Shown piece by piece: positions 4,708-58,286 of a DNA stretch of 64,000 nucleotides. The notes under the pieces were generated by a model. It worked only from the letters and a program-made list of their open reading frames with translations, ran no database searches and had not been told where the DNA came from. The translations under genes were made by a program, and so were the position numbers. Source of the DNA: Nitrososphaerota archaeon (GTDB taxonomy: Archaea; Thermoproteota; Nitrososphaeria_A; Caldarchaeales; Calditenuaceae); the NCBI GenBank assembly GCA_041641295.1, contig JBEPYO010000001.1:832001-896000 (forward strand), written 5' to 3'. The stretch's first letter is position 1. Every line of letters starts with the position of its first letter.

Positions 4708-4962
4708 TCAAGCCACCCCCTTCATCCCAGACCTAATCCTCGCTAGGAGCCGCCTATGGGTTTGGCTGGCCCTTATAAGCCCCGTCTTAAGCGCACCCCT
4801 CTCATCCCTGCTGATGTTCTGCCTCCTCTTCAAGTCTATCTTAACAGATTCCTCTATCCGTTTCACCGCCAGCCTGACCGGCTCGATCTCCTCCCTAATC
4901 CTGCTGGTAGACTGCGACCAGAACCCCCGAACTCTCAACTTGGTCTTAACATCAGCCGCCAA
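4708..4962 (-). CDS. Hypothetical basic protein
   Basis: ORF co-oriented with its neighbours. Confidence 0.5.
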   Translation of the reverse strand: MAADVKTKLRVRGFWSQSTSRIREEIEPVRLAVKRIEESVKIDLKRRQNISRDERGALKTGLIRASQTHRRLLARIRSGMKGVA

Positions 4963-27520: not shown

Positions 27521-27926
27521 TGGAAGCTATCTATCGTGGCAGGGTCCACTCCTTCGTGGGAAGTACTTTTCTTCCAAAAACACCTATGGCAGAGACTTCA
27601 TCAACCACTCTTAGTGTAAGAACCTCTGCGTTGGGCTCCCAAACTAATTTACTACTCATTTCCATATCATATAGATATAGATAATGGATGTTATTATAAG
27701 CGCTCCTCCAGCCAAGACATTAGTAATAAGAGCGTCTCTTGGTTCAGGAATTAGATATCGATTAAGACTAGAGTATGTTCCACCACCCACCATCAAGCAG
27801 CCAACAGAGAAGCCAAAGGTAATAAGCGTTGAAGTGTCAGAGAAGTCGGTGGAGGCCGAGGTTTGGGGTGAAAGCCATGAGAAATTGTCTCGGAATGGTA
27901 AATATAGAATACGTCCGCTCCAGATA

Positions 27927-28528
27927 TGCTTGGGAAAAGCCCTCAGAAGAGGGCCGCCAAAACCAATTCCGAAAAAAGGTAGGAAGCTTGAAGTGAGTGC
28001 ACGATCAAAGACACTCTATCAGCTTTTACAAAAACCTATAGACATTGAGAGGCTAGGACGGTTCATAGAGCACTGCGAGGACTGCAAGAGGAGTTTTCTG
28101 AGAGGATTCTTCGATAGCGAGGGTTCTGTGAATAAGGGAAATGGGGTAATTACTTGCTTTAATACAAATACTAGGCTTCTCAAATATGTCCAGAGACTTC
28201 TCCGGTTCTAGGTATCAGAACAACCGGACCGCAACTCATGAAGAAGAAAGGGACAACCTCTACAATATTTGGGAGAATATTCATAAGTAAAAAGAATGTA
28301 TACTACATCACAATAATGGTGAGAGACGTACTAAAATTCTATCAACTGGTCTGGTTCACTATAAGGCGAAAGCAACAACTCCTCGAGGAATATCTCAGGA
28401 GACGCGGGCTACTAAAGGAGAAGCCGCCTAACCAATTCTCACCCAATTATTTCTCCCCTAAAATCTCAACACACTCATCACATATAAAACTCTCCCCCAG
28501 CCTGGCGGGGGCTCGAGAATCATCCTAA
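27927..28528 (+). pseudogene. 5'-truncated, frameshifted LAGLIDADG endonuclease; paralogue of 54871-55935
   Basis: CLGK...SKTLYQLLQKP...FLRGFFDSEGSV aligns by eye with the intact copy; a frameshift near 28206 restores LGIRTTGP. Confidence 0.88.
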
Positions 28529-52973: not shown

Positions 52974-53762
52974 CTACAGCTTCCTCAGCACTCTCTCGAG
53001 CCACTCGGCCGTAGCGGATATGGCCTTCCACTCCACCTCAGGGCCCGTAAACGTGTGGTCCCCATCCTCAACCACAAACTTCTCCCGAGGCTCACCGGCC
53101 CTATTGTATAGCATGTCCGCGTGGCTCGGAGGGACGACGCTGTCCCTACCACCATGGACTATGAGCAGAGGCCTTGGAGAGATCTTGGAGACTGCCTCTG
53201 ATATGCTGTAGGACAGGAGGTCTCGGATGAACCTCATGCTCATCCTATACCCCGATGGCAGGTCTATGTATTCGCCGGAGGCCGCACCACCCTTTAAGAG
53301 GGTCTTCGCGTACTCTGCCAGTGCTAGGAAGTCTGCGGGAGCGCTCCACGTGCAGACAAACCTAATCCTAGGGTCGCGTGAGGCCCTGACTAGGGAGACC
53401 GCGCCACCCATACTCAAGCCCAGCACCCCAATCCTCCCAGCGTCAACGTCAGGCCTCCCTGAGACATAGTCCAGCACACTGCCTAGGTCCTCAACCTCGC
53501 TTGTAAAAGTCGCCTCACTAAACTCTCCCTCACTCTCGCCCGAGCCATAGAAGTCGAACCGCACCACGAGAAGACCCCTCCTACAGAACTCCCGGGCAGC
53601 CCTCACAAATAGGCGGTGAGCCTCAATCCTATTCCCAGTAAATCCATGGCACATAATGAGGCTGGGGGCTGGGGAATGGTTGGGAACGTGGAACATGCAG
53701 GCGAGCCTACCCCGAGGCCCCCCCACCCAAACAAACTCCTCCCGCACAACCCAGAGCTGCAC
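52974..53762 (-). CDS. Alpha/beta hydrolase
   Basis: HGFTG, GLSMGG, HG..D and DH triad motifs. Confidence 0.9.
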   Translation of the reverse strand: MQLWVVREEFVWVGGPRGRLACMFHVPNHSPAPSLIMCHGFTGNRIEAHRLFVRAAREFCRRGLLVVRFDFYGSGESEGEFSEATFTSEVEDLGSVLDYVSGRPDVDAGRIGVLGLSMGGAVSLVRASRDPRIRFVCTWSAPADFLALAEYAKTLLKGGAASGEYIDLPSGYRMSMRFIRDLLSYSISEAVSKISPRPLLIVHGGRDSVVPPSHADMLYNRAGEPREKFVVEDGDHTFTGPEVEWKAISATAEWLERVLRKL

Positions 53763-53839
53763 ACCTCAATACAAATAGGTTATATACGCTAGGACAGAGA
53801 TGCCCATCCACCTGACCACCCAGCTGTACCGACGGAGAG

Positions 53840-53871
53840 TGGGGCCGGCCGGATTTGAACCGGCGACCTCC
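53840..53871 (-). repeat. Isolated tRNA 3' half (att-like direct repeat of 55985-56016)
   Basis: GGAGGTCGCCGGTTCAAATCCGGCCGGCCCCA; 28/32 identical to the tRNA-Pro 3' end, all 4 changes compensatory in the T-stem; no adjacent 5' half. Confidence 0.85.
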
Positions 53872-54020
53872 ACATCTTTGAGTTCTCCATTAAAATATCC
53901 ATATTCAGTGTCTTTAGCCTTCTGTTGTAGCCTCTATTAATGCTTCGGAGAACTCGCTTCGTTATATCGGGTCTTAACCGATGGTCTTTAATAGGCTCAG
54001 ACTATGATTACTACATAGGC
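53872..54020 (-). pseudogene. Degenerate remnant paralogous to the clamp-like gene at 9822-10178
   Basis: EALIEATTE/AKDTEYGYFNGEL versus EISARAITEVEGVEYGYFNGVL; CCATTAAA.TATCC.TATTCA shared at DNA level. Confidence 0.7.
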
Positions 54021-54094
54021 TGAGCTATTGTGTTGTGGTATTTTCGCTCTGGTGCCTATTCCTTTATATCTATGGGTTTGTTTGTTGGTCTTAG

Positions 54095-54870
54095 ATAGGC
54101 TCATCGGGAGCCCCGCAGCCTGATGGATCGATGAGTCGGGTGGGCCGACGAGACACCATCTCCAGAGGCGGTGGAGGTGGTGTGGAGTGTGCGTCAGGCT
54201 GTAGTAGTAGAGGCGCCCGCTGGTGACGTGTGATGTTAGTTCCACGTCTACAGAAGGCGCTGGGCTCCGCCGCTAGGCTGAGGCCGCGCGCCCAATAGAA
54301 AGACGCGGCTATAGGCCTAGACAGAAAGATTAGACGACCATAACCACATACTCTTCCCCCAATTCTCACCCTAGCATGGGTGACCACCCCACCGTCTTTT
54401 TTGGACGGGGTGGCGGGGGGAGGGGTTGGCTGGGCTAGGGGCCTTGGGGCGGTTCGCTTGGACCGACCACGCGCCAGGGCGGCTCGCTTGGGCTGACGGA
54501 CGCGTGGAGAGGGACGAGGAATACCGACGACTCCTAAGGGATTGCTGGATGGTTTCAGATGTTACGGTTGATTCTAAAGGAAGATGGTCTAGGAATTAGG
54601 CCCCGATAGGAGGTCCCCTATCTCCGCCGGAGGGGTGTGCTCTCCGGCGGGAGGGGGTGTTATTCCTCCTGTCGGGGAGTCCCGTCTTTCTGGCGGCCTG
54701 GGCCTCCCGGGAAGGCCATGTCTCAGGACATGGCTTTTAGGGTTCCCCAGCACCTTGGGGGTGGGTTGGTGGCTGGGGATAATAGGGAGCAATATGCTCC
54801 CTCCACAAACCCCACGGCCCCTCCTGGTCCCGGGAGGAAGGCCGCCATGGATGGGACGGGGGAGGATAGG
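54095..54870 (+). ncRNA. Putative large structured RNA upstream of the LAGLIDADG gene
   Basis: More than 15 nested stems with G-U pairs favouring the + strand; TTTATAT at 54063-54069; no credible ORF. Confidence 0.6.
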
Positions 54871-55935
54871 ATGGAGAAGACTAGGCGAAGACTAACACCG
54901 GAGAAGAGGGCTAGACTCTTAGATGCGTTGAGGAGGGGTGTGGAGAAGGGGTACGGCTACGTTGATGTTTGGAGGGAGCTGAAGAAAAGCGGGATAGATG
55001 TTTCTAGGAAAGCCGTTGAGTACTGGTATTACAAGTGTTTTCCAGAGAGGGTTAGAAGAAGGGGAGAATACCTCCCAAGAGAACTGAGAATAAGATTGTA
55101 TGAAGAAGTCAGAGAGCTGAGAAGAAAAGGCCTAGGATACCGGAGAATAAGGAAGAATATCAAAGAACTTTACGGAGTTACGCTGAACAATGCTGTAATT
55201 AGTCATTGGTGTCGTGGAATTCACACACCATACAACGGTGCAAGGATACCCACAATAGACCATCTAGAACCATCCCCAGAGCTCGCCTATGTTATAGGTG
55301 TGGTTGCCGGTGATGGGTGGGTGGTAAAAATAAGCACAAGGAGTGGAGGATATAGGATTGGTGTCAAGGCGAAGGACAGAGAGTTCATTGAGGAGTTCGC
55401 GAGATGCTTGGGGAAAGTCCTCGGAAGAGAGCCGCCGAAGCCAATAACTGTAGAGGGTGGGAAGCTTGAAGTACGCGTCCAATCGAAGACACTATATCAG
55501 CTTTTACAGAAACCCTTTGACATTGGGATGATAAGACCACTCGCAGAATACTCCGAAGACTGTATACGAAGTTTTCTGAGAGGATTCTTCGATAGTGAGG
55601 GTTCTGTGGATAAAAATAAGGGAGAGATTTGTTGCTATAATACTGATATCAGGCTTCTCGAATACGTCCAGAAACTACTAAGGGCTCTAGGCATTGAGAC
55701 AACGGGGCCGAGAATCAAAGCGAGAAAGGGGTCAATCTATAAAATATGCTATAAAATATGGGAGAGAACAACTGTGAAGAGAAAGGACGTATATTGCATT
55801 GAAGTCAGGGCAAAGGATAGACTAAAATTCTATAGACTGGTAGGGTTCACTATAAAGCGAAAGCAACAAAACCTAGAAGAACACCTTAAGAAACGCGGAC
55901 TTCTGGTGACAAGCCACCAACCAACCCTCCCCTAA
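54871..55935 (+). CDS. Free-standing two-motif LAGLIDADG endonuclease with two N-terminal HTH-like repeats
   Basis: LAYVIGVVAGDG and FLRGFFDSEG; GGAGG before ATG at 54871; no intein splicing blocks. Confidence 0.9.
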   Translation: MEKTRRRLTPEKRARLLDALRRGVEKGYGYVDVWRELKKSGIDVSRKAVEYWYYKCFPERVRRRGEYLPRELRIRLYEEVRELRRKGLGYRRIRKNIKELYGVTLNNAVISHWCRGIHTPYNGARIPTIDHLEPSPELAYVIGVVAGDGWVVKISTRSGGYRIGVKAKDREFIEEFARCLGKVLGREPPKPITVEGGKLEVRVQSKTLYQLLQKPFDIGMIRPLAEYSEDCIRSFLRGFFDSEGSVDKNKGEICCYNTDIRLLEYVQKLLRALGIETTGPRIKARKGSIYKICYKIWERTTVKRKDVYCIEVRAKDRLKFYRLVGFTIKRKQQNLEEHLKKRGLLVTSHQPTLP

Positions 55936-55984
55936 TCCCTTCCCCCCACTTAATGCCCTCAGACTCATTTGCTCATTTGAAAAA

Positions 55985-56093
55985 TGGGGCCGGTGGGATT
56001 TGAACCCACGACCTCCTTCCCCAACTTGGGGGTGAAGCCCCAAGTTGACCGGGCCCGAGCCGGGCATCTTAGACCATGCTCGACCACGGCCCC
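55985..56093 (-). tRNA. tRNA-Pro(CGG) with a 33-nt non-canonical intron at about 42/43 (56016-56048)
   Basis: GGGGCCG/CGGCCCC acceptor; CCCGG-CTCGGGC-CCGG|G anticodon arm; TTCAAAT T-loop; intron hairpin CAACTTGGGG/CCCCAAGTTG. Confidence 0.9.
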
Positions 56094-56150
56094 CCTACCG
56101 CTCCAAGCAGCCGCGCAAAAAATAAACGTAATCCGGTCTGGGAGGGGATG

Positions 56151-56381
56151 TTAGACGACTATAGCGGTTTCGGTCCTCTCAACGCCGTCGATCGTGTGTA
56201 TCTGGGATAGGACCGTGTCTGTCAGCTTCTTCAAGTCCTCAGCCTCTACTAGGACCAGTACGTCGTATCTGCCGGTTATCATGCACGCGAGTTTACAGCC
56301 CGAGATCTTTCCAACCTGCTCGACAACATTCTTCGCCTTACCCGCCCTAGCCCTAATGAAGACGTATGCTTGGACCGCCAC
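56151..56381 (-). CDS. Lrp/AsnC ligand-binding domain protein
   Basis: ITGRYDVL...I..IDGV.RTET. Confidence 0.88.
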   Translation of the reverse strand: MAVQAYVFIRARAGKAKNVVEQVGKISGCKLACMITGRYDVLVLVEAEDLKKLTDTVLSQIHTIDGVERTETAIVV

Positions 56382-56431
56382 GAAGTATCCACTGCCCTAA
56401 ACGCTTATATCCTTTCCTCCCCCACAAACCC

Positions 56432-56900
56432 TTCACAGGACCACGCAGAATCTGTGAACTGTGGAGGGCTTCTCTGTGAAACTGTGAAGTGTGAAATAGG
56501 ACTCTGAGAATCTCTGAAACAGACCCATAGATGGTTCATGTATTACCATTGTATGAATGATTGCAGTTTCTGCGTATCTCTCAGGGATGCCTGATTGTTG
56601 CAGAAAATGAGCATTTCTGAGCCATTACAGTCGTGTCATAGGGCCCTTAACGATCCATAACTTTACCCGGTGAATATGGGTGGTGAAGGGTGGACGCCAA
56701 CACTCCACACGCTCCACTGGAAAAGGAGGGGTTCAACAGACCTAACCCCCATTCACAGTGAAAAGCCGCGAAAAACAGCTCTTCGAACAGGATAGGCAGA
56801 TTTCGGACCTGAGGCCAAAGGCCTACGACCGGCACCTCAAAGAGGTGGAATAGCCAAACTCGCTTTAACACGCCCACCCCACCAGTTCTAATGGAAATTA
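56432..56900. promoter_or_regulatory. Probable replication origin (oriC) with ORB elements
   Basis: ORB CTCCACTGGAAAAGGAGGGGT (56712-56732); inverted ORB TTCCATTAGAACTGGTGGGGT (56876-56896); directly upstream of cdc6. Confidence 0.75.
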
Positions 56901-57014
56901 ACTAAAATCAACACAAACGGAGGAGGGAAAAAGAAATTAGATAAATAATTCCTCTTATCCTAGAAATTTCTCTCATGGCTACCGATAACACTGCTGGCTA
57001 GCCCTTCAATTGTT

Positions 57015-58286
57015 GTGGACGACTTTCAGTTGAAAGAGAGGGGTGACCCCCTCAGCGACCTGCTGGCGCGGGTCTCAGCCTCGTCGCGGATATTCAAGGA
57101 TAGGGAGGTCTTGCGGGCCGACTATATTCCTGGCAACCTGCCGCATAGGTGGGAGCATATCAAGAGGCTGGGTGAGATCGTCTCAACAGGTCTCAAGATG
57201 CATAGGCCGAGCAACGTCTTCATATACGGCAAGACTGGGACAGGTAAGACAGCTGTCGTCAAGCACGTCTTCAAGAGGTTCTCCGCGGAGGCTGAGAGGC
57301 TCGGCATTCCACTCCGCTTCGTCTACATCAACTGCAGGATTGCGGGGACTGAGTACAGAGTCTTGGCCGAACTCTGCGAATCCCTCGGCGTACAAGTACC
57401 ATTCACGGGCCTCTCAAAGAGCGAGGTCTTCAACAGGTTCAGGAGAGCCCACACCTCATCACAGAACCTCCTGATAGTATGTCTGGACGAGATTGACGTC
57501 TTGGTTAAGGGGTTTGGGGACGCCCTGCTATACGAGCTGACTAGGATAAATGAGGGGATTGAGGGGAGCAAGCTCTCCCTCATCGGAGTGTCGAACGACC
57601 TCATGTTTAAGGAGATGCTGGACCCGAGGGTTTTGAGCAGTCTGAGTGAGGAGGAGATCGTCTTCCACCCCTACACCGCTGTAGAGCTCGTCGATATTCT
57701 GAGCGAGAGAGCTAGACTTGCCTTTCACGAAGGAGCCGTCCCCCAGTCGACCATAAACCTCTGCGCAGCCCTTGCAGCTGCTGAGCACGGTGACGCTAGG
57801 AGGGCGCTCGACCTCTTGAGGGTGGCTGGTGAGATTGCTGAGAGGAATATGGCTGAGAGGGTTGAGGAGCAGCATGTGCGCATGGCGCTTGGCGTGATTG
57901 AGCAGGGCCGCGTCTTCGAGGCCTTGACGACTCTCCCTCTCCACGGCAGGATCGTCCTCCTCGCAGTCTATCACGCGACTCTCCGCTCACCAAGCAAAAT
58001 AACCTCAGGCCTGGTCTACCAGCACTACCGCTCGCTCTGTAGCCAGCTGGGCCTCGAGCCTCTCACGGACAGGAGGATCAGCACCCTAATCTCGGAGCTA
58101 GACATGCTCGGGGTCCTCTCGAGCAACGTCATAAGCTATGGGAGGTATGGGAGGACTAGGAAGATTTCCTTGAAGATTCCGGTGGACGAGGTTAGGCAGG
58201 CGCTGGAGCGAGACGAGTTCCTATCCCACCTCTTGGACCAGGAAGTGGCTCAGGCGGGTAGCGTGGAGAGTGAGCGAGGTAGCTAG
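57015..58286 (+). CDS. cdc6: Orc1/Cdc6 replication initiator
   Basis: YGKTGTGKT, LDEID, HGDARRALDLLR and wHTH GRYGRT motifs. Confidence 0.96.
   Translation: MDDFQLKERGDPLSDLLARVSASSRIFKDREVLRADYIPGNLPHRWEHIKRLGEIVSTGLKMHRPSNVFIYGKTGTGKTAVVKHVFKRFSAEAERLGIPLRFVYINCRIAGTEYRVLAELCESLGVQVPFTGLSKSEVFNRFRRAHTSSQNLLIVCLDEIDVLVKGFGDALLYELTRINEGIEGSKLSLIGVSNDLMFKEMLDPRVLSSLSEEEIVFHPYTAVELVDILSERARLAFHEGAVPQSTINLCAALAAAEHGDARRALDLLRVAGEIAERNMAERVEEQHVRMALGVIEQGRVFEALTTLPLHGRIVLLAVYHATLRSPSKITSGLVYQHYRSLCSQLGLEPLTDRRISTLISELDMLGVLSSNVISYGRYGRTRKISLKIPVDEVRQALERDEFLSHLLDQEVAQAGSVESERGS

Follow-up and report, generated by a model that had tools for sequence, protein, structure and literature searches.

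The tRNA-Pro(CGG) gene of a hot-spring archaeon hosts a selfish cassette of about 2.2 kb. Within the window, meaning the whole stretch of 64,000 nucleotides that was analysed, positions 53871-56048 are a mobile cassette that landed in this gene where anticodon stem and variable loop meet. The likeliest account of its origin, to which we give roughly an even chance, is that the nuclease drives the invasion of tRNA genes and that the leader comes from an IS110-like element.

The interrupted tRNA-Pro(CGG) gene

The tRNA-Pro(CGG) gene lies on the minus strand at 55985-56093, as a sequence-only reading of this DNA had proposed, and is called by Rfam (tRNA, 44.9 bits) and, with introns, by ARAGORN. 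Between its anticodon stem and variable loop sits a clean inserted block of 2,178 bp (53871-56048); besides a single gene, it contains a 33-nt hairpin insert and a 3' exon that takes the place of the original one. The original 5' part of the tRNA, positions 1-43 (56049-56093, minus strand), matches the sister genome G003 without a difference as far as the insertion point; the upstream flank resembles G003 too. The original 3' exon, consisting of variable loop, T-arm and the 3' strand of the acceptor, is orphaned at 53840-53870/72 on the minus strand; this is the second tRNA 3' half, in the same orientation as the tRNA, that had been described earlier. It is identical (32/32 or 33/33) to the 3' end of the same-locus tRNA-Pro in G003, G002 and G001, and its T-stem departs by two compensatory pairs from each of the three tRNA-Pro genes in this genome. 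Among 14 T-arm motif matches outside predicted tRNAs genome-wide, it is the sole orphan that is joined by an acceptor-like 3' end. Sequence comparison identifies 55985-56015 (minus strand) as the replacement 3' exon carried in by the insertion, which is 100% identical to the 3' end of tRNA-Pro(TGG) of this genome and also to the same-locus tRNA in G004, G007 and G006. The tRNA is still complete because the insertion supplies its own 3' exon, the original one being stranded 2.1 kb away. A split tRNA or a giant-intron tRNA was considered for the orphan half and rejected, because the orphan equals the exon of the sister genomes and this genome has its three tRNA-Pro isoacceptors, each of them whole.

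The 33-nt insert (56016-56048, minus strand) lies at tRNA position 43/44 and is missing from the intron-less same-locus tRNA of G001, G002, G003, G004 and G007. It folds as an 11-bp hairpin with unequal flanking loops, and none of the MFE and suboptimal folds contains a canonical bulge-helix-bulge (two 3-nt bulges and a 4-bp helix). An intron and an enlarged variable arm are equally possible readings of the insert. The distal end of the insertion (53871-54099, plus strand) is AT-rich, with 39% G+C against about 60% in the flanks. A candidate TATA-like heptamer lies there at 54063-54069, and a promoter-like motif at about 54040-54075 has two further copies in the genome (C1:1051927 and C1:632033); the ORFs behind these copies have no visible kinship. 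A decayed clamp-like gene, suggested for this part of the unit, was not recovered: when 53873-54110 was compared with the whole genome by tblastx, nothing but the self-match beat E 0.08, and six tested ORFs within 53800-54870 matched no Pfam family at E≤1.

Relatives of the host show the locus in its empty state. In four sister genomes (G003, G004, G002 and G007) the site holds a 76-79-nt tRNA and no nuclease gene, which bears out the earlier proposal of an integrase-less, discrete unit at a tRNA gene. These genomes keep the order hydrolase, tRNA-Pro, AsnC and Cdc6, with an uninterrupted, intron-less tRNA; the locus is filled in the present genome (G000). The junctions show no homology at either end and no target duplication. 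Among the public runs checked, contigs of X2 and X3, which belong to a different study, show the occupied form over 53300-56014 without a single difference, and no contig bridges an empty site. One 76-nt contig skips the 33-nt insert but has two other letters, and is most likely the paralogous tRNA-Pro(TGG). A joint in X8 was disregarded, as one of its sides was 24 nt at 90% likeness.

As in archaeal viruses and plasmids that integrate into tRNA genes, a complete tRNA and a partial tRNA copy flank the element, and a tRNA 3' part in direct repeat around a block is the standard att geometry. The cassette might accordingly be the relic of an element with an SSV- or pNOB8-type tyrosine integrase, mostly deleted since, and pNOB8-type integration is what Sugahara et al. 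(2012, PMC3293823) propose for a related insertion in Caldiarchaeum subterraneum. We consider this very unlikely. The direct-repeat geometry pointed out in the sequence-only reading is real, but the repeats are not identical: the orphan and working 3' exons at the block edges agree at 28/32 nt, the differences being two compensatory T-stem pairs, so an identical att-type core repeat is not seen. Unlike elements with a tyrosine integrase, the block is only 2,178 bp long, carries a 33-nt insert exactly at one junction, and holds neither an integrase nor an integrase fragment. Pfam gives a family for the nuclease ORF only, and the flanks (hydrolase, AsnC and Cdc6) are syntenic core genes. The presumed recombinase ORF of the Caldiarchaeum insertion is most probably IS110-like and not a tyrosine integrase.

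The LAGLIDADG nuclease and its relatives

The single gene of the cassette is an intact ORF of 354 aa, counted from its ATG, at 54871-55935 on the plus strand, opposite to the tRNA as had been claimed. It matches Pfam LAGLIDADG_3 in two stretches (E 5.7e-22). The nearest solved structure, both by sequence (E 3.7e-6) and by fold, is I-DmoI, the enzyme of an archaeal 23S rRNA intron, whose chains make up about the first 30 matches in Foldseek (TM by target 0.69-0.74). The AlphaFold model (pLDDT 87.6) has two N-terminal three-helix modules and the double-domain alpha-beta-beta-alpha-beta-beta-alpha fold of LAGLIDADG enzymes. As in I-DmoI, the core is monomeric with a double motif, and the GDG and SEG of the protein align with the catalytic Asp and Glu of that enzyme. 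Unlike I-DmoI, the gene does not lie in an intron, and the protein has about 130 extra N-terminal residues forming two HTH modules. Pfam, fold and motifs together show the predicted product to be a free-standing I-DmoI-like LAGLIDADG homing endonuclease with two N-terminal HTH modules and intact catalytic residues, in keeping with the earlier remark that it belongs to neither an intron nor an intein.

Homologues of the nuclease number 366. Matches occur in 28 of the 41 related genomes and range from 0 to 45 per genome, and many carry stops or sit at contig ends. A decayed paralogue had been placed at 27927-28528 of the window; it is present at 27888-28414 (plus strand), as two tblastn pieces in different frames with in-frame stops and 50-58% identity, and no tRNA adjoins it. 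The suggested tie of this family to tRNA loci is upheld. Of 52 nuclease copies, 30 (16/29, 11/19 and 3/4) have a convergent tRNA 3' end no more than 300 bp away, against a chance expectation of about 0.005 per copy (48 predicted tRNAs in 1.56 Mb), or about 0.2 for 52; the other 22 have none. In the present genome, each of the five intact copies stops some 50-90 bp short of a convergent tRNA 3' end, and in the cassette the spacer between nuclease stop codon and tRNA 3' end occupies 55936-55984. At locus L007, tRNA and nuclease gene are on the same strand.

The nuclease tree was built from 45 HSPs of at least 230 aa from 48 loci, shorter HSPs being excluded; copies were labelled "none" where the neighbouring tRNA is known only as a T-arm motif or was missed by ARAGORN. 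Copies cluster by genome and not by tRNA. The Pro, Thr and Ser neighbours of G001 form one clade with 100/100 support, and the Arg, Val and "Leu" neighbours group in G006. Nuclease lineages specific for one tRNA were therefore rejected, and the family is shown to have multiplied within genomes and hopped between different tRNA genes. Newly duplicated copies have only the ORF and the 3' spacer in common: two copies of recent origin in G006 agree at 88% over 946 nt, a stretch that runs from near the start of the ORF to the 3' end of the tRNA and stops there, and their unit lies just after the tRNA and not within it. An orphan exon accompanies 3 of the 52 copies only (the window, L002/L040 and L005). 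Since the G006 unit follows its tRNA and orphan exons are this scarce, the architecture of the window is atypical for the family.

All three orphan exons start at the same tRNA position. No conserved termini were found among the three insertions, whose far ends are unrelated. The nuclease-linked exon differs from the orphan in the T-arm in 3/3 pairs. G001 is the counter-example: other LAGLIDADG copies lie at a tRNA-Pro in G001, G005 and G006, and in G001 the gene is found beside an "old-type" exon without any insert, so exon type alone is not the immunity determinant in all lineages. Three of the five nuclease-adjacent tRNAs of the present genome have an insert between positions 38 and 47; no enrichment for introns is claimed, because this genome has many introns in any case (in about 14 of 48 ARAGORN calls).

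WhiA is also among the fold matches of the nuclease, which has kept its HTH modules and a constant place beside tRNAs. These proteins might thus be domesticated WhiA-like DNA-binding factors with a host function beside tRNAs, the duplication in the window being an unrelated local rearrangement. This seems most improbable, for the catalytic GDG and D-x-E-G are unchanged in 36/36 aligned family members, copy number varies as widely as stated above with many copies decayed, presence differs at one locus within the genus, and copies group by genome across different tRNAs.

The upstream RNA and the IS110-like family

The DNA upstream of the nuclease gene encodes a genuine conserved structured RNA. 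Densely paired non-coding DNA had been reported here, and the description holds: 54090-54870 has no Pfam-recognisable ORF, and the fold of 54090-54530 beats all 100 shuffles (z -4.4). The conserved structured RNA, module A, occupies 54100-54520 on the plus strand, with the core model R1 at 54271-54437. A seven-copy alignment of module A has compensatory changes in 22 of 93 predicted pairs, and its G-U pairs are compatible with the plus strand only. In the RNA core, 97% of cells are paired, compared with 41-55% when the partners are slid. In Rfam 15, which includes HEARO and group I/II introns, nothing but tRNA reaches the gathering score in the window, and a search at E≤1 over 53500-56400 gave nothing credible besides tRNA. 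Module B (54596-54717, plus strand) is a long irregular hairpin leader that ends at a conserved ATG context; it is 70-87% identical in nucleotides to many copies in G005, G006 and G027, which sit upstream of both LAGLIDADG and IS110-like ORFs. The strongly conserved open-frame stretch that follows (54718-54870, plus strand) has about 85% or more nucleotide identity among copies of the genus, above that of the ORF behind it. It is in frame with this ORF, open in most copies and missing from more distant homologues; judging from these comparisons, it is possibly a Pro/Gly-rich N-terminal extension of the nuclease or else part of the leader.

The sequence-only reading had the nuclease work with this cis-encoded RNA, by analogy with HEARO/OMEGA pairs, so that the RNA directs or licenses LAGLIDADG cleavage of tRNA loci. 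RNA core and nuclease gene are indeed on the same strand, 434 nt apart, the stretch that directly precedes the ORF exceeds it in conservation, and the pairing occurs in four genomes of two families, with nucleases that are 43-71% identical. This recurrence could reflect more than passive inheritance. LAGLIDADG enzymes, including I-DmoI, read DNA through protein, and I-DmoI is the fold match here. Whereas the expected tRNA association of homologues was found, the upstream RNA is not kept in most of them. Among 30 copies of R1, 15 precede a gene for an IS110-like protein, 226-1,114 nt upstream of the ORF and on the same strand, and 4 precede a LAGLIDADG gene; the usual protein partner of the RNA has an RNA-guided fold. 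The present genome has two R1 copies against five intact LAGLIDADG genes, and R1 is lacking at four of these five. The RNA-LAGLIDADG units of G024 and G038 have no tRNA nearby. Because half of the R1 copies precede an IS110-like gene and only 4 a LAGLIDADG gene, and most LAGLIDADG copies of this genome have no R1, an RNA-guided LAGLIDADG enzyme is unsupported, and we rate it as hardly probable at all.

IS110-group elements encode a bridge RNA upstream of the recombinase ORF. The RNA family of the window resembles the elements IS621 and ISCro4 in that it normally lies upstream of a recombinase-like protein, and differs from them in that a LAGLIDADG gene takes the place of the recombinase gene in the window; a guide role of the RNA is putative, by analogy. 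In fold, the model of the IS110-like protein resembles the bridge recombinases of ISCro4 and IS621 (E about 1e-6, TM 0.62-0.67), and the protein atlas agrees. A PDB sequence search with this protein gave no match, the fold search alone giving one, and the Pfam IS110 models miss the family. Five IS110-like paralogues are present in this genome, all outside the cassette, which itself does not encode a recombinase with DEDD/RuvC-like and Tnp domains. At L115, a LAGLIDADG ORF abuts a truncated IS110-like ORF. Homing endonuclease genes colonise a divergent IS110-like family.

One of the five genomic recombinases, with the RNA as its guide, might have placed the cassette in the tRNA gene in trans. 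The cassette would then be a non-autonomous IS110-like hybrid that retains the promoter and the bridge-type RNA, with a LAGLIDADG gene in the recombinase's stead. The preference of R1 for IS110-like genes, the match of their product to bridge recombinases and the clean block without target duplication fit this explanation, and R1 scores 169.9 bits here, near the 179-190 bits of the copies ahead of IS110-like genes. We nevertheless hold it to be rather unlikely, since tRNA adjacency tracks the LAGLIDADG gene and not the RNA. No tRNA was seen near the five IS110-like paralogues, and no tRNA or orphan T-arm within 1.5 kb on each side of the RNA at the 15 R1/IS110-like loci, where the DNA mostly ends in or just after the ORF. 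The lack of conservation at the far ends of the three orphan-exon insertions also counts against it. As for guide pairing, the RNA shares with the target or the end junction, in either sense, only runs below 11 nt; this is weak counter-evidence, since known guides are shorter and the comparison has little power below 9 nt, and the 9-10-nt matches of the RNA lie away from the junction.

In G024, an IS110-like ORF has the same layout of repeat region, ORF and then a tRNA-Thr with introns, which is the arrangement described for C. subterraneum (PMC3293823) and speaks for placement in trans. That source reports a 1.87-kb insertion at tRNA-Thr(GGU). Like the cassette, the insertion measures about 2 kb, lies inside a tRNA gene and brings a replacement exon and an intron, leaving an orphan fragment; it also has a repeated non-coding region followed by one ORF with its 3' end toward the tRNA. 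Unlike the cassette, it replaces the 5' exon (PMC3293823). C. subterraneum belongs to the same archaeal order as the host of the window. By sequence likeness, its ORF "b" (813 bp) most probably belongs to the IS110-like family and not to LAGLIDADG. A 270-aa protein attributed to C. subterraneum is 43% identical to the IS110-like protein here, and G024 encodes it without a change, 314 nt upstream of tRNA-Thr(GGT) with introns. An assignment of ORF "b" to LAGLIDADG, based on 271-aa Caldarchaeum members, was dropped, as the 270-aa protein and the G024 copy are IS110-like. For intron gain and splitting of archaeal tRNA genes, the study is the only population-level case in print, and it invoked a recombinase without identifying one. 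The terms "homing endonuclease" and "LAGLIDADG" were not found in that text, where neither protein is recognised.

A proposed nuclease-driven invasion of tRNA genes

Free-standing homing endonuclease genes beside their targets are known, e.g. SegB in the tRNA cluster of phage T4, and in "collaborative homing" an intron is served by a neighbouring nuclease. The window resembles these systems in having a nuclease outside any intron or intein and directly beside a conserved gene, copies that multiply and then decay, presence that is polymorphic at one locus, and, in the three exon pairs, a conserved-sequence variant linked to the nuclease. It differs in that the enzyme is of the LAGLIDADG type, resides in an archaeal chromosome and occupies many different tRNA genes, and in that the cassette lies inside the tRNA gene with a spare exon, the 33-nt insert and an orphan exon. 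In the open-access full-text literature searched, no paper tying LAGLIDADG genes to tRNA gene disruption was found.

In the preferred reading of nuclease-driven invasion, the LAGLIDADG nuclease would be the engine. It would cut a sequence common to many tRNA genes, comprising the variable loop, T-arm and 3' end, and host repair would copy the gene, at times together with neighbouring DNA, from the occupied locus. The linked variant exon and 33-nt insert would protect the occupied allele against renewed cutting. The upstream RNA is probably not a partner of the nuclease but a leader or guide-type RNA of the IS110-like element family. LAGLIDADG genes may repeatedly invade or replace the recombinase gene of such elements; the RNA here would therefore be a promoter and 5' leader at most. 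Several observations stand against homing, among them the 22 copies without a convergent tRNA and the position of the recent G006 unit. A clean block without junction homology fits a site-specific recombinase and is not the simplest product of homologous repair, and the design of patch exon plus insert is also seen with an IS110-like gene in G024. A working hybrid would join both routes: a LAGLIDADG gene would replace the recombinase of a bridge-RNA element, which would then have RNA-guided placement in trans as well as a homing route. We hold this combination, as a general source of introns, orphan halves and split tRNAs, only tentatively and judge it unlikely as a whole. If it is true, patch-carrying elements, each with a spare exon and an insert that can be spliced, would be a general source of non-canonical tRNA introns and orphan tRNA halves, and after rearrangement would also yield split tRNA genes in archaea.

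The IS110-like proteins described here make up a divergent family of the IS110/bridge-recombinase-like kind, which occurs in thermophilic archaea and has a large conserved RNA upstream. It has long been asked how archaeal tRNA genes come to be split and to have introns at odd positions. Comparison of the filled and empty locus shows that the insert gained at 43/44, the exchanged exon and the stranded tRNA half all go back to one 2.2-kb insertion, whose sole gene is a recognisable nuclease. The nuclease family is a marker of tRNA genes throughout a whole order of archaea, and the intron-gain hypothesis is therefore directly testable.

A 2.18-kb insertion inside a tRNA-Pro gene

The window comes from an archaeal genome of 1.56 Mb and 52.5% G+C (G000), in which a tRNA-Pro(CGG) gene occupies 55985-56093 on the minus strand (Rfam, 44.9 bits; ARAGORN with introns allowed). 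The sequence-only reading placed beside it an intact LAGLIDADG gene on the opposite strand and a second tRNA 3' half in the orientation of the tRNA, and both are present: the gene is a plus-strand ORF with two LAGLIDADG motifs at 54871-55935 (Pfam LAGLIDADG_3, E 5.7e-22), and the second 3' end lies on the minus strand at 53840-53870. Neighbouring genes encode an alpha/beta hydrolase (52974-53762), a small AsnC-type protein next to the tRNA-Pro gene (56151-56381) and Cdc6/Orc1 (57015-58286), and the order hydrolase, tRNA-Pro, AsnC, Cdc6 is kept across genomes of the same genus. Empty-site alleles, which the earlier reading had proposed to look for, were found in G003, G004, G002 and G007, where the tRNA gene is uninterrupted (76-79 nt) and no LAGLIDADG gene lies between hydrolase and tRNA. 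The first observation was largely right, and because empty sites exist the locus is more informative than its author could know. In the intergenic stretch at 56400-57010, upstream of Cdc6/Orc1, a short CTGTGAA-like word recurs in several close copies, and this stretch could be a replication-origin region.

Compared letter by letter, G003 matches the window over the upstream flank and the tRNA's first 45 nt (56049-56093), and then runs straight into the exon at 53840-53870 (32/32 identical). Since G003 joins the 5' part directly to this displaced (orphan) exon, the window carries 2,178 extra bases (53871-56048), with a border that may slide by one shared G. The tRNA is thus cleanly interrupted at position 43/44. 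Along the tRNA strand, the block begins with a 33-nt insert containing an 11-bp hairpin (56016-56048) and a spare 31-nt 3' exon (55985-56015, minus strand), followed by a 49-nt spacer, the antisense LAGLIDADG gene, non-coding DNA rich in G+C and, last, an AT-rich end. The 33-nt insert shows no canonical bulge-helix-bulge motif; it may be spliced out, for a mature tRNA of 76 nt, or be kept as an enlarged variable arm in one of 109 nt. Two compensatory T-stem pairs separate the new exon from the displaced one. The new exon is identical to the 3' end of tRNA-Pro(TGG) of G000 and, at the orthologous locus, to that of the tRNA in G004, G006 and G007. Contigs of two runs from another study carry the filled form with zero differences over 53300-56014, and no empty-site contig was seen among the independent-sample contigs.

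The block was described earlier as integrase-less, and Pfam indeed recognizes a family only in its LAGLIDADG ORF; with no integrase in 53871-56048, it is very unlikely that the block is an integrase relic. A decayed clamp-like gene, also proposed, finds no support in similarity or Pfam evidence.

Orphan 3' exons upstream of a nuclease gene occur at two further loci, L002/L040 (G005) and L005 (G006). All three orphans share one starting point in the tRNA, where the variable loop begins, and in 3/3 the T-arm differs from that of the nuclease-adjacent exon. The insertions measure about 1.45, 2.2 and 3 kb, and their far ends have no common sequence. A whole-genome scan of G000 gave no other orphan with a tRNA-like 3' end.

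Several observations on tRNA genes stand apart. At the orthologous hydrolase-AsnC locus (window 56049-56093 against L034, L035, L036, L037, L098 and L099) the anticodon varies, the tRNA being Pro(CGG) in G000, G001 and G003 and Pro(TGG) in G002, G004, G006 and G007, and two T-stem types are mixed among these genes, a pattern that points to anticodon switching or to gene conversion among the tRNA-Pro paralogues. L005 (G006:C3) has two identical 96-nt tRNA copies (2587-2682 and 2814-2909), 227 bp apart and directly behind the LAGLIDADG gene, each with a 21-nt insert at 43/44, the position of the window's insert. In L122 (G006:C2), the tRNA behind a LAGLIDADG copy (4780-4880) has an insert of ~33 nt in the D-arm region; it was mis-called by ARAGORN as tRNA-Leu with an 892-nt intron, and its anticodon loop reads by eye as Arg(CCG). 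Judged against the tRNA set expected of a genome, ARAGORN with introns allowed lists for the whole of G000 no tRNA-Gln, tRNA-Gly(CCC) or tRNA-Leu(TAA or CAG), and gives several tRNAs implausibly long "introns" (2,101 and 298 nt); G000 may contain heavily interrupted or split tRNA genes.

The LAGLIDADG family and tRNA 3' ends

The nearest solved relative of the 354-aa LAGLIDADG protein by sequence is I-DmoI (E 3.7e-6), and in the alignment the GDG and SEG of the window's protein fall on the catalytic Asp and Glu of I-DmoI. In the AlphaFold model (pLDDT 87.6) a double LAGLIDADG core is preceded by two N-terminal modules of three helices each; I-DmoI chains are the best fold matches, and the two catalytic motifs are invariant among 36 aligned family members. 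The free-standing nuclease gene, the sole gene of the block, is apparently active; that it is a domesticated regulator is highly improbable.

A protein search returned 366 relatives from thermophilic archaeal metagenome bins, called "LAGLIDADG family homing endonuclease" or "intein-encoded endonuclease-like" where named. Matches occur in 28/41 related genomes, with 1 to 45 per matching genome, many of them with in-frame stops or at contig ends. G000 holds five intact copies and one decayed, in agreement with the duplication and decayed paralogue noted earlier. All five intact copies stop about 50-90 bp from a convergent tRNA 3' end (Pro-CGG, Ile-GAT, Arg-TCT, Arg-CCT and His-GTG). When each related genome is represented by a single locus, 16/29 loci have a convergent tRNA 3' end within 300 bp (three of the 16 seen as a T-arm motif only), and a same-strand tRNA occurs at one more. 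A second sample gave 11/19 new copies and the remaining four G000 copies gave 3/4. The proposed check on homologues therefore shows a tRNA association: 30/52 copies face a tRNA 3' end, against a chance expectation of ~0.005 per copy from tRNA density. A different layout is seen in more distant copies (genomes of family f2: L021 about 1415, L023 about 408, L124 about 4884), where the ORF is preceded at ~90 nt by a lone T-arm-like motif on its own strand.

In a maximum-likelihood tree, copies cluster by genome and not by adjoining tRNA; the G001 copies beside Pro, Thr and Ser form one clade (100/100 support), and the G006 copies beside Arg, Val and "Leu" another. Within one genome, then, a lineage spreads over different tRNA genes. 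Two recent G006 copies share 88% identity across 946 nt, a stretch that reaches from roughly the ORF start, by way of the spacer, to the tRNA 3' end; their upstream DNA is unrelated, so the usual moving unit is the ORF and its 3' spacer, placed directly behind a tRNA gene. The tie to tRNA 3' ends is family-wide, copies spread within genomes, and the family acts like selfish DNA tied to tRNA genes.

The upstream RNA and the IS110-like proteins

The large structured RNA reported upstream of the nuclease gene is well supported. The fold of 54090-54530 beats all 100 shuffles (z -4.4), and an alignment of seven copies, from three genomes and a further metagenome contig (L001), has compensatory changes in 22/93 consensus pairs, with G-U pairs that fit the plus strand only. 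Over a 172-position core 97% of cells pair, against 41-55% with the partners slid, a comparison favoured by drawing the structure from the same alignment. No Rfam family matches the RNA. A promoter-like motif (a conserved T-rich block, then a TATA-like box) at 54040-54075 also occurs at G000 C1:1051927-1051978 and C1:632033-632106, three places in all, and the ORFs behind the latter two look unrelated.

A covariance model of the RNA core (R1) finds two copies in G000 and 30 in 11/41 related genomes, in two families. In 15/30 a 297-aa protein lies 226-1,114 nt downstream on the same strand; a LAGLIDADG gene follows in 4/30 and lies on the other strand in 2/30. The other nine have neither gene (four within ~400 nt of a contig end). 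The 297-aa protein has no Pfam match and no PDB sequence match and is recognized by fold only. The atlas aligns its model to a cluster with both IS110 Pfam domains (TM 0.73), and with a second model of the protein (pLDDT 86.7) the matches are the ISCro4 and IS621 bridge recombinases and a TIGR-Tas nuclease (E about 1e-6, TM 0.62-0.67); by predicted fold the protein is IS110-like. The regular partner of the RNA is therefore a protein of RNA-guided recombinase fold. IS110-group elements encode a bridge RNA upstream of the ORF, the same position as that of the R1 RNA. The upstream RNA thus belongs to another mobile-element family, and the partnership proposed between RNA and nuclease is not supported by the 15/30 against 4/30 count; an RNA-guided LAGLIDADG enzyme is hardly to be expected.

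Module B (54596-54717), a leader directly before the ORF that ends in a conserved start context, is common to LAGLIDADG and IS110-like genes. The ~150 nt after it are conserved above the level of the ORF and the frame is open; they may be translated, in a 405-aa form of the nuclease that would start at 54718. In L115 (G038:C6, 3951-5158), a 116-aa N-terminal IS110-like stump overlaps the start of a 292-aa LAGLIDADG ORF by 22 nt; a homing endonuclease gene has apparently landed inside a recombinase gene, so nuclease genes do land in IS110-like elements.

The 297-aa proteins form a divergent IS110/bridge-recombinase-like family, seen in G000 at C1:1092081-1093857 (L048 1331-3107; the protein itself is encoded at 1092964-1093857), with paralogues at C1:1028956-1029846, 809212-810087, 1341350-1342123 and 1135593-1136372, five in the genome. 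Its members are named only "hypothetical protein" by sources, and related genomes often carry, upstream of the gene, a structured RNA several hundred nt long (about 430 nt here).

Precedent and mechanism

A related case in print is an insertion of 1,868 bp at tRNA-Thr(GGU) of Caldiarchaeum subterraneum. Its parts are a repeated region "a" of 545 bp, an ORF "b" of 813 bp predicted to act in DNA binding or recombination, an intron and a new 5' exon; the former 5' fragment stays in place as a remnant, and the authors read the event as pNOB8-type integration (Sugahara et al., 2012; PMC3293823). The IS110-like family includes a 270-aa protein attributed by one source to C. subterraneum (43% identity). 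The related genome G024 encodes the identical protein as an 813-bp ORF, 314 nt upstream of an intron-bearing tRNA-Thr(GGT), so ORF "b" is most probably IS110-like. The 545 nt upstream of this ORF are a repeat of 7-8 copies in G024, pieces of which lie upstream of 2/3 LAGLIDADG matches there. A full-text literature search, with subscription journals outside it, found no paper joining LAGLIDADG genes with tRNA gene disruption. The element is a variant of free-standing homing endonuclease and tRNA-disrupting insertion, with partial precedent in print.

Homing, by nuclease cutting of tRNA genes and repair copying, is the likeliest mechanism, with about an even chance of being correct. The nuclease would cut a sequence common to tRNA genes and repair would copy the nuclease gene from an occupied locus; in the window, the donor's exon, the 33-nt insert and the leader would have been copied along, and the recipient's own 3' exon joined on without homology. 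Such homology-free joining would account for a breakpoint that is constant in the tRNA although the far ends are unrelated. Junctions without homology also count against homing, as do the same patch-exon design with an IS110-like gene and the recurrence of the RNA-nuclease pairing in four genomes. These features leave room for insertion of the block in trans by an IS110-like recombinase with the RNA as guide, which is conceivable but rather improbable. The cassette matters for understanding how introns enter archaeal tRNA genes and how such genes lose a half.
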